Assembly: GCF_055900595.2 (NCBI RefSeq)
Contig: NZ_CM148325.1
DNA: 64,000 bases
Direction: 5' to 3' (one strand)
The first letter of the stretch is position 1, and the number at the start of each line of letters is the position of its first letter. The position numbers and the translations under genes are program-made. Shown piece after piece: positions 63,244 through 64,000 of the stretch. The notes below the pieces were generated by a model, which did not search any database, was not told where the DNA came from, and worked only from the letters and a program-made list of their open reading frames with translations.

Positions 63244-63895
63244 TGGATTACAGATGCGCAATATCGGCGCGGTTTTTTGGCGCGATTTTGTTGATTTTTA
63301 TATATCAGCACCATCTGTGACGTTGTCACATGGTGATAATTTCCTGATGTGTGTCCTTTATAACTGACAATATTTCAATGAAGTATGAGAATAAACGGTA
63401 ATATGCAGGTGTCAGAAGAAATGTTTACGATGGCCATCTCTTGTCATTATTGACGGAAATCTGCCTGATGTTCATCTCTTTTATCCGACGGTCAGATTTA
63501 CAGGGAGGGGATTCGCCTGAAAGATATCAGGTAATGCAGCTACCATGATAAAAACAGGTATCACTTCCTTTCGGGAAAAATAAATGTCCCGGTCTTCTGC
63601 ATGAGAATGTTTGTCAGACAGAAATGTCGTCTGAATCAGTTTTTTATCGCTGCCTGTTCGTTCGGTAAAGAACAGGATTATCGCTTGTCTGACTTACCTG
63701 AATGAATATGCCAGAATGATGTTATACTCCCGTTGTGTTGTGGAAATTTTTCAGGTGAAAAACATCCCGACAGGGAAAATAATTCCAGAGTAAATTTGCT
63801 CCGTTTTCAGAACAAAAATCCCCATGCTGACCGTGAAAAACTGAAACCAACATTCAGTCTGTATGAGTGTCTGAGAATGTTGCTAATGTCGGTAT

Positions 63896-64000
63896 GATAC
63901 TATATACACGTATTTTACTAAGTATTATATACACCTATTTCATTAAGTATTTTTACTAAGCATTTCAATAAGTGTTATATACGTATTTTCTACTAAGTGT
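63896..64000. repeat. at least four imperfect tandem 25-bp repeats running to window edge
   Basis: TATATACACGTATTTTACTAAGTAT / TATATACACCTATTTCATTAAGTAT / ..TACTAAGCATTTCAATAAGTGT / TATATACGTATTTTCTACTAAGTGT. Confidence 0.6.

Follow-up and report, generated by a model that had tools for sequence, protein, structure and literature searches.

Which gene does a short repeat array at the very end of a stretch of island DNA belong to, and what might it bind? The stretch, here called the window, comprises 64,000 nt of contig NZ_CM148325.1 (assembly GCF_055900595.2), and the array occupies its positions 63900–64000. A reading made earlier from the sequence alone (the sequence-only reading) had described imperfect 25-bp repeats closing an AT-rich region free of open reading frames (ORFs), and had suggested iterons, arm-type recombinase sites, binding sites for a regulator such as the neighbouring RHH or WYL proteins, or a structured non-coding RNA. 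We find that the array stands at the start of a block that travels with genes of the YagK/YfjJ family ('inovirus Gp2'), whose products are predicted to be HUH (Rep-type) nucleases. The interpretation we favour, with somewhat less than even confidence, is that a DNA-binding protein of the island, most probably the HUH protein, uses the units as promoter-proximal iterons or operators.

The array and the block to which it belongs

Four features at the end of the window are central to the argument:

63780–63791, plus strand: motif M1, TAATTCCAGAGT, the left edge of the conserved block, recurring upstream of YagK/YfjJ genes
63871–63898, plus strand: sigma-70-like promoter candidate from promoter scans (CTGAGA, 16-nt spacer, TATGAT), within or overlapping M2
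63887–63909, plus strand: motif M2, TGTCGGTATGATACTATATACAC, with a family consensus of roughly TGTYGG(A/T)TTGGTAWTAT(A)
63900–64000, plus strand: direct-repeat array running off the window end, with at least eight units of 12–13 bp that fall into two kinds (TATATACACGTAT and TTTTACTAAGTAT)

Tandem Repeats Finder reported 63901–63982 as 3.3 copies of a 25-bp period (77% matches, score 85), and the identity of the last 100 nt at a lag of 25 nt (0.65) was reached in none of 5000 shuffles at any lag from 8 to 40. The unit words do not occur elsewhere in the window: all four matches to ANTAAGYRTT lie within 63917–63976, and both matches to TATAYACRYRTATTT (at most one mismatch; 0.10 expected) are at 63901 and 63926. 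The basic unit, however, is shorter than the 25 bp first proposed. Cores of the form A[AC][GA][TC][AG]T at 63906/63908, 63920, 63945, 63958, 63970, 63981 and 63995 give a true unit of 12–13 bp; with trivial overlaps excluded, 12 and 13 bp are the modal core spacings (41/82), and doubles appear at 24–26 bp. All units have a single orientation, and the two kinds usually alternate, so that the 25-bp period is a pair of units. Thus the proposed array of at least four imperfect repeats stands, but the TATATAC core said to be shared by them does not: TATATAC...TAAGT is present in only three of the four 25-mers, the third 25-mer (63951–63975) being made of two 'TAAGT'-type half-units, both of the second kind.

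As the sequence-only reading had anticipated, the array continues past the window and is conserved in relatives, where it runs for a further ~60–120 bp. It is present in every E. coli-type locus examined, with a total length of 99–219 bp, and terminates at ...GATACACATCCAGTTTAGTAAA. Copy number ranges from 8 to ~17 units in E. coli-type islands, and strains differ by whole units. The proximal half gains and loses units within E. coli; no part of the leader is better conserved than the distal half. In the gap-free distal array 2 of 26 columns vary in the cores versus 11 of 33 outside them (Fisher p = 0.026), a comparison in which the definition of the cores is partly circular. The exact array of this window was not found in any complete E. 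coli genome of our collection. Over 63000–64000 the nearest of these are 97% identical, and over the last 300 nt the best matches are 93% identical, in both cases with a unit-sized gap in or at the array; the window sequence is E. coli-like island DNA.

We used the whole intergenic region of a relative as the query in a sensitive search of 5426 complete E. coli genomes, and it matched 1877 of them. The left part (equivalent to 62848–63770), together with the gene for an RHH-like protein, is present in only 42 of these. In almost all of the other ~1800, homology extends from the equivalent of 63772–63777 to the start codon of the Gp2 gene, and the left flanks leading into the same ...aaaaTAATTCCAGAGT are of at least three unrelated kinds. 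Since this homology edge is approached by such varied left flanks, we conclude that the array forms the beginning of a block which moves together with the Gp2 gene. One carrier of the block is strain CFT073 (NZ_CP158446.1, ~4,688,010–4,689,159). The block spans ~870 bp (longer in most strains) directly upstream of the YagK/YfjJ gene. This 243-aa gene, annotated 'inovirus Gp2 family protein', begins ~750 bp after the array start in the closest relative and ~940–1060 bp after it in most E. coli relatives; placed from these, the gene that belongs to the present array should lie just past the window end. K-12 yagJ, which also encodes 243 aa, was considered as an orthologue and discarded, as it has no nucleotide similarity.

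Motifs M1 and M2 and a predicted HUH nuclease

To describe what is common to these upstream regions, we compared 40-odd loci drawn from a species-representative genome scan, metagenomes and plasmids. M1 has the form TAAYTCCAGAGT or TAATATCAGAGT in relatives and is the conserved element farthest out, with the edge of E. coli homology within ~10 nt to its left; it often lies within a short palindrome whose arms differ by lineage. M2 follows at a distance of 45–125 bp in all lineages carrying M1. The pair is found upstream of the family in Escherichia, a Klebsiella plasmid island, Tatumella, Kosakonia, Rosenbergiella, Siccibacter, Brenneria, Providencia, Proteus, Advenella and Alcaligenes, and upstream of both yagK and yfjJ of K-12. 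M1 and M2 are therefore kept across Enterobacterales and Burkholderiales (gamma- and beta-proteobacteria) although the proteins are only ~40% identical. The distance from M2 to the start codon is far more variable, from ~75 bp (K-12 yfjJ) to 2.2 kb (Siccibacter). In the two K-12 copies (L044:31132-31210 for yagK and L006:6920-6990 for yfjJ) M1 and M2 are ~45–65 bp apart and no array follows; yagK has a perfect 9-bp inverted repeat, ACTCTTACT(N13)AGTAAGAGT, just after M2. A further M1-like word (one mismatch) and M2-like word (two mismatches), ~135 bp apart at 58849–58997 on the minus strand of the window, fall in the start and interior of a 260-aa ORF. The M2-like word is conserved in relatives; we regard the pair as probably a chance occurrence.

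Promoter-like sites are no more numerous in the region than expected by chance, and the weight we give to the candidate in M2 comes from its conservation and from K-12 data rather than from the scan count. The K-12 yagL–yagK spacer bound the RpoD holoenzyme in genomic SELEX (systematic evolution of ligands by exponential enrichment) and is also marked with H-NS sites (PMC3946193). The best-match promoter predicted from that peak is TTTAGA-16-TATAAT, with hexamers that are predicted and not mapped (PMC3946193), and its spacer is exactly the M2 counterpart, TGTTGGATAGGTATTA. Because this SELEX-derived promoter has the M2 counterpart as its spacer, we take M2 as a candidate sigma-70-type promoter of the HUH gene; the spacer itself, which is unusually conserved, is likely to be a regulator-binding site. 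The start of the array falls within M2, in the -10/+1 region, and by eye the units resemble the M2 core (GTATTATATAC versus GTAATATATAC).

How widely such arrays occur was scored as a repeat score (z) over the 170 bp following M2 in each lineage:

E. coli type: z 5.8 to 9.4
Metagenomic lineage L013 (protein 42% identical; units GAGAGTRTAT..AGAAC): z 6.8
L011, L036 and L037: traces, z 2.1 to 2.6
Brenneria, Tatumella, Kosakonia, Rosenbergiella, Limnobaculum and the Chimaeribacter-like L041: z -0.9 to 1.0
Most Proteus/Providencia, Advenella, a Burkholderiaceae metagenome-assembled genome and Alcaligenes: z -0.9 to 1.0

In addition, the Klebsiella plasmid island (L053) has, judged by eye only, a cluster of GGTATT-type words ~90 bp after M2. 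The clusters of L013 and L053 contain motifs like the M2 core, differ in sequence from the E. coli array, and belong to lineages with a long leader between M2 and the gene; most of the short-leader lineages scored are at background. The arrays are thus lineage-specific elaborations of the long-leader versions, in the same place and with different sequences. No comparable array was seen upstream of the second YagK/YfjJ copies in L001 and L008.

The protein encoded next to these motifs matches Pfam YagK_YfjJ_C (6.6e-37) and REP_ORF2-G2P (2.8e-10), with weak matches to replication-initiator families of PHROG. An alignment of homologues down to ~22% identity to the first sequence contains nearly invariant HUH histidines (consensus KHYHVxLLLN), followed by RAxYLAKxxTK with a conserved tyrosine (YLxK), and an AlphaFold2 model reached a predicted local distance difference test score (pLDDT) of 87.7. 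The gene is under purifying selection, with a ratio of non-synonymous to synonymous divergence (dN/dS) of 0.16–0.50 at dS 0.04–0.19. From these motifs and the modelled fold, the YagK/YfjJ genes are predicted to encode small HUH (Rep-type) single-strand DNA endonucleases, consisting of a nuclease domain of ~190–245 aa with no helicase. The E. coli protein (L001:9643-10374, P0034-P0092) has a Pro/Ser/Arg-rich insertion of ~38 aa between the HUH motif and the catalytic tyrosine, and many database entries are shortened or frameshifted within this stretch. Directly before the start codon, TTTTTTAC...CCGGT(N21)ACCGGAG is conserved (L013:5950-6000, L017-L024:2450-2500, L053:5950-6000). Its stem, in which the Shine-Dalgarno sequence GGAG is paired, has undergone a few compensatory changes (CCGG/CCGG to CCAG/CTGG), and the element may control translation. 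In the literature on YfjJ, YagK and 'inovirus Gp2' we found no functional study; the family appears there only as one of the conserved genes of islands, among them islands that jumbo phages transduce, and one preprint lists an 'inovirus Gp2-like' gene among the core genes of a transducible island class.

By tblastn, homologues of the HUH protein are present in 77 plasmid records. The plasmid matches listed are mostly large plasmids (55–480 kb) or records of more than 0.8 Mb, and the one locus inspected (L053) is an island-like insert; two small plasmid records (16 and 37 kb) contain only truncated, unannotated matches. The sole 'phage' match is an unverified 4.5-kb wastewater contig (L052, OR844780.1) with a YagK/YfjJ homologue 63% identical to P0095, which may be island DNA carried in particles.

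Candidate binders of the repeats

Short tandem repeats, located both next to the nick site and in the promoter of the initiator gene itself, are common targets of HUH initiators, as exemplified by geminivirus iterons, the GCTC repeats of adeno-associated virus (AAV) Rep, the ACCA repeats of parvovirus NS1 and the 11-bp direct repeats of pMV158 RepB. We propose that the array is, similarly, the promoter-proximal part of the control region of the YagK/YfjJ-family gene. The core of this region would be M1 followed, 45–125 bp on, by M2 as the promoter. In E. coli-type islands a sequence starting within M2 would have been reiterated to 8–~17 units of ~12.5 bp, each keeping a short core (AAGTRT or ACACRT, then T-rich) like the M2 core GGTAWTAT. 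A DNA-binding protein encoded by the island would then occupy M2 as well as the units, which would be its same-orientation sites (iterons or operators). We consider the HUH protein the most likely binder because its gene is the sole protein gene invariably linked to M1 and M2, and because tandem repeats at the nick site and in the initiator's own promoter are typical targets of HUH initiators. The promoter would thereby be autoregulated, and the binding might in addition mark the DNA site of HUH action (origin or nick-site recognition). We infer the binding, the identity of the protein and any role in replication or transfer from sequence comparison.

Several observations weigh against this proposal. 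The 12–13 bp spacing does not equal the helical repeat, and up to ~17 units is far above the typical number of Rep iterons. Most family members have M1 and M2 alone and manage without an array, which is therefore not essential to the module. Leader identity between relatives is 0.6–0.86 at dS 0.04–0.19, so that the leader diverges at about the synonymous rate or faster, and one relative has lost ~280 bp of it; together these imply weak constraint. Folding of the M1–M2 spacer in 18 lineages gave no conserved structure, and no hairpin is conserved around M1 or M2. The likeness between the units and M2 lies in AT-rich sequence, and composition could contribute to it. Finally, among plasmid and phage records searched by tblastn there is no small plasmid or phage with the HUH protein as its sole replication gene.

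An extension of the proposal, which we regard as rather unlikely as a joint claim, is that islands like CP4-6 and CP4-57 and their relatives form a large family of integrative islands, so far unrecognised, whose cis-acting origin (a rolling-circle origin or an origin of transfer, oriT) consists of M1, M2 and the array. These islands would span Enterobacterales and Burkholderiales, with the YagK/YfjJ HUH protein acting as a Rep-like nickase or relaxase. What argues for it is gene orientation and the sharp homology boundary at M1: in Enterobacterales the GTPase, DUF932, antirestriction, RadC and CbtA genes all point away from the M1/M2 site. If this were true, these genes would be a plasmid-style 'leading region', the first to enter a new host, and the break in homology at M1 in ~1800 E. 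coli genomes would be the nick or transfer boundary.

A different island protein could also bind the units. AlpA-family proteins are small winged-helix recombination directionality factors (RDFs) or regulators, and the array could be their operators, bound cooperatively as direct repeats to repress or switch the M2 promoter. An AlpA-family gene stands immediately after the HUH gene in Brenneria, Providencia, the Klebsiella plasmid island and metagenomic relatives, and 1–5 kb downstream of it in E. coli islands; these Phage_AlpA genes are seen in the islands of relatives and are not visible within the window. AlpA, TorI, Vis and Xis are recognised as one RDF family (PMC8844411), and RDFs such as 186 Apl are described as binding direct-repeat arrays at attachment (att) sites and promoters, with sites one helical turn apart (PMC7498355). 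The cores AAGTGTTTTAC and AGTATTAT resemble a Xis-binding stretch, ATGTTGTGTTTTACAGTATTATGTAG, as read from the lambda sequence, which is a lead rather than a test. However, the array spacing of 12–13 bp differs from the one helical turn (10–11 bp) of RDF sites, and no second motif cluster was found in the window or the fetched loci, none of which demonstrably includes the island's own att sites. Moreover, M1 and M2 stay positioned by the HUH gene even where alpA is upstream of them (L046) or distant (L048). We therefore judge an AlpA-family binder to be improbable. On the side of sequence likeness, the lambda attP P arm (L051:230-275) shares GTGTTTTAC and AGTATTAT with array units through ATGTTGTGTTTTACAGTATTATGTAG, and the lambda core TATACTAAGT resembles the TTTTACTAAGT unit; both may reflect composition only. 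The Pseudomonas aeruginosa AlpA antiterminator was set aside as a model: that protein resembles Q, has its 6-bp site between -35 and -10, and is larger than the ~70-aa Phage_AlpA proteins, to whose family it does not belong.

Silencing of island promoters by H-NS via AT-rich DNA downstream of the promoter is well established, and the array might have no dedicated binder and serve as such a silencer, nucleating H-NS or another nucleoid protein over the promoter of an acquired gene. Its G+C content of 0.228 fits this, as does the listing of H-NS sites next to an RpoD holoenzyme site in the paralogous K-12 yagL–yagK spacer (PMC3946193). Yet H-NS requires AT-richness and not a regular 12–13-bp register with conserved cores, and other stretches of the same intergenic region are AT-rich yet non-repetitive. 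We hold silencing to be about as improbable as binding by AlpA.

The same small likelihood attaches to the view that the array is a neutral minisatellite, produced by replication slippage in AT-rich DNA by M2 and composed of functionless copies. Whole-unit differences between closely related islands are what slippage would give, and both the absence of an array from most family members and the near-neutral divergence of the leader are consistent with it. Against this stand the retention of an array in all E. coli-type loci examined, the independent arrays that L013 and L053 carry in this place with other sequences, and the lower variation of cores relative to inter-core positions in the partly circular test above. 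A 12–13 bp unit with two alternating types is also more ordered than simple slippage products.

Less probable still is that the array acts as RNA: it would open a long 5' untranslated leader in the HUH mRNA, and its repeated AU-rich motifs (UAAGU, ACACGU) would be bound by an RNA-binding protein or adjust decay or termination. With M2 as the promoter, transcription would start at or within the first unit; all units share one orientation, and no ORF or intrinsic terminator was found in the leader between the array and the HUH gene. The Shine-Dalgarno-pairing stem, with its compensatory changes in several lineages, does suggest some RNA-level control of the HUH gene. On the other hand, the units match no known RNA-binding motif, and the leader tolerates large deletions. 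The proposal of a structured non-coding RNA in the sequence-only reading also found no support: the array has no Rfam match at the gathering threshold or at E <= 1, and folding of the full array shows no excess secondary structure on either strand (z = 0.23 on the plus and -0.05 on the minus strand). Apart from a JUMPstart element in L011, the Rfam scans of the window and five related loci gave only two matches, both in other parts of the window, below threshold and at chance level.

That the repeats are arm sites of the integrase upstream, or operators bound by the RHH-like or WYL proteins encoded in the window (an RHH-like segment, E = 0.0022, ends a 267-aa ORF, and a WYL/HTH gene lies at 59147–59827), is very unlikely, since co-occurrence contradicts these ideas: the array block is found in 1877 genomes and the RHH-like gene in 42, leaving ~1800 genomes with an array and no RHH gene, arrays are present in islands without a WYL gene (L003, L005 and L008), and array motifs are absent elsewhere in the window and the fetched loci, including near the integrase, which is 12 kb away across another module. 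Of the sequence-only reading, then, the notion of an iteron or regulator-binding array holds in so far as the repeats look like one, and its integrase-element, RHH/WYL, non-coding RNA and arm-site versions do not.

Returning to the reading that we favour, the closest functional parallels to the array are Rep iterons and RDF operators, but it can be assigned to neither class. With the repeats bound by the HUH Reps of geminiviruses, AAV, parvoviruses and pMV158 it shares short same-orientation repeats by an AT-rich motif, upstream of an HUH gene and overlapping its promoter. It differs in its 12–13 bp units, numbering up to ~17 where the known systems have 3–5, in its location on a chromosomal island rather than a plasmid or virus, and in that no hairpin-borne nick site was identified and no helicase is present. 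A predicted HUH endonuclease gene is adjacent, as for such iterons; in the plasmid and phage records searched, homologues were not found as the replication gene of an autonomous plasmid or phage. As for a nick site, M1 and M2 are strongly conserved candidates, with no hairpin conserved across lineages. The operator arrays of RDFs (186 Apl, P2 Cox, lambda Xis, KplE1 TorI, the AlpA family) are likewise direct repeats in the control region of a mobile element, with an AlpA-family gene near, and in relatives an RDF gene is indeed found in the same element; here, though, the spacing differs from a helical turn, and no matching cluster at an att site was found in the sequence sampled. Theta iterons are units of 17–22 bp in a ~22-bp register, accompanied by DnaA boxes, a DNA-unwinding element and a Rep_3-type initiator. 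The array resembles those of pSC101, P1, F and R6K in being tandem repeats of variable copy number in AT-rich DNA by an initiator-like gene; we rejected this class since unit size, register and initiator type do not match, the units being 12–13 bp, the initiator-like gene of HUH type, and the DnaA-box-like words only loose (by eye). The nearest comparison is with the K-12 paralogues, the promoter region of yagK in CP4-6 and the region upstream of yfjJ in CP4-57, which share the HUH gene, M1 and M2 and differ in having compact leaders (M2 ~75–185 bp from the start codon) without an array.

YagK/YfjJ genes are among the commonest uncharacterised genes of enterobacterial islands, including the cryptic prophages of K-12 and the pathogenicity islands of uropathogenic E. 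coli. Our analysis indicates that they encode HUH nucleases and have a conserved two-motif control region, expanded in E. coli by an array that looks like binding sites. These results are relevant to the question of rolling-circle-type replication or mobilisation of such islands. Should the array be only a product of silencing or slippage, the finding would be an ordinary one.

Island context and other features of the window

The sequence-only reading placed the array in the integrase-proximal cargo region of an upstream element, which does not agree with its surroundings. The only integrase in the window (50255–51520, minus strand) is 12 kb from the array and parted from it by a module of DUF4942, CbtA, YeeU, RadC, antirestriction, DUF932 and GTPase genes, and this module adjoins the same downstream HUH gene in every relative (Escherichia, Brenneria, Providencia). 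Gene orientation, and an analogy to CP4-57 of K-12, make it most likely that the integrase is part of another element, adjacent on its left. It is of the P4 type (Arm-DNA-bind_3, Phage_int_M, Phage_integrase) and adjoins the DUF4942 end of the array-bearing island (50255–52600), an arrangement that suggests two integrative elements in tandem at this point. ARAGORN found no tRNA genes in the window.

Between the GTPase gene and M1, other islands hold different genes at the position of 61028–62847, and the gap looks like a hot spot for cargo. In the window it contains ORFs of 319 aa (plus strand) and 267 aa (minus strand), neither with a Pfam match. The minor features between this cargo and M1 are:

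63244–63779, no strand: ORF-free, AT-rich spacer, particular to this variant of the island cargo and outside the widely conserved block
63255–63281, plus strand: terminator-like hairpin and T-run from a terminator scan, directly 3' of a 62-aa Cys-rich ORF (63055–63243); a weak call
63309–63335, no strand: imperfect 27-bp palindrome or hairpin, CACCAtcTGTGACgttGTCACATGGTG, from an inverted-repeat listing and folding

The region from 63244 to 64000 is ORF-free as claimed, in that it holds no ORF of 60 aa or more: the longest lying fully within it has 54 aa (63733–63897), and the 62-aa ORF stops at 63243. Its AT-richness is likewise confirmed, with a G+C content of 0.375 overall (37.5%) and 0.228 (22.8%) at 63900–64000, compared with 0.473 for the whole window and 0.521 for the conserved island module (52600–60914). 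At least 80% of 63000–64000 is covered in only 42 of the 5426 complete E. coli genomes. The palindrome noted earlier near 63320 (TGTGACgttGTCACA) is real and larger than described, extending over 63309–63335 and folding with 11 pairs at -12.8 kcal/mol (z = -3.06; 3 of 200 shuffles were equally good). The hairpin at 63255–63281 is no more stable than its shuffles (z = 0.54). It follows the 62-aa ORF (MLCPSCMSGGCCCSVCVSEWEDW...), which carries no annotation in relatives and could be a small gene.

The 267-aa ORF of the cargo (62044–62847, minus strand) has its RHH-like segment at the C-terminus and a weak PHROG match to 'transcriptional repressor' (E = 0.0022). About 30–55 bp upstream of its start lies an 8-bp inverted repeat, ACTGACAT(N9)ATGTCAGT, at 62875–62902 (fold z = -3.5), which is a plausible candidate for an autoregulatory operator of this RHH-like protein.

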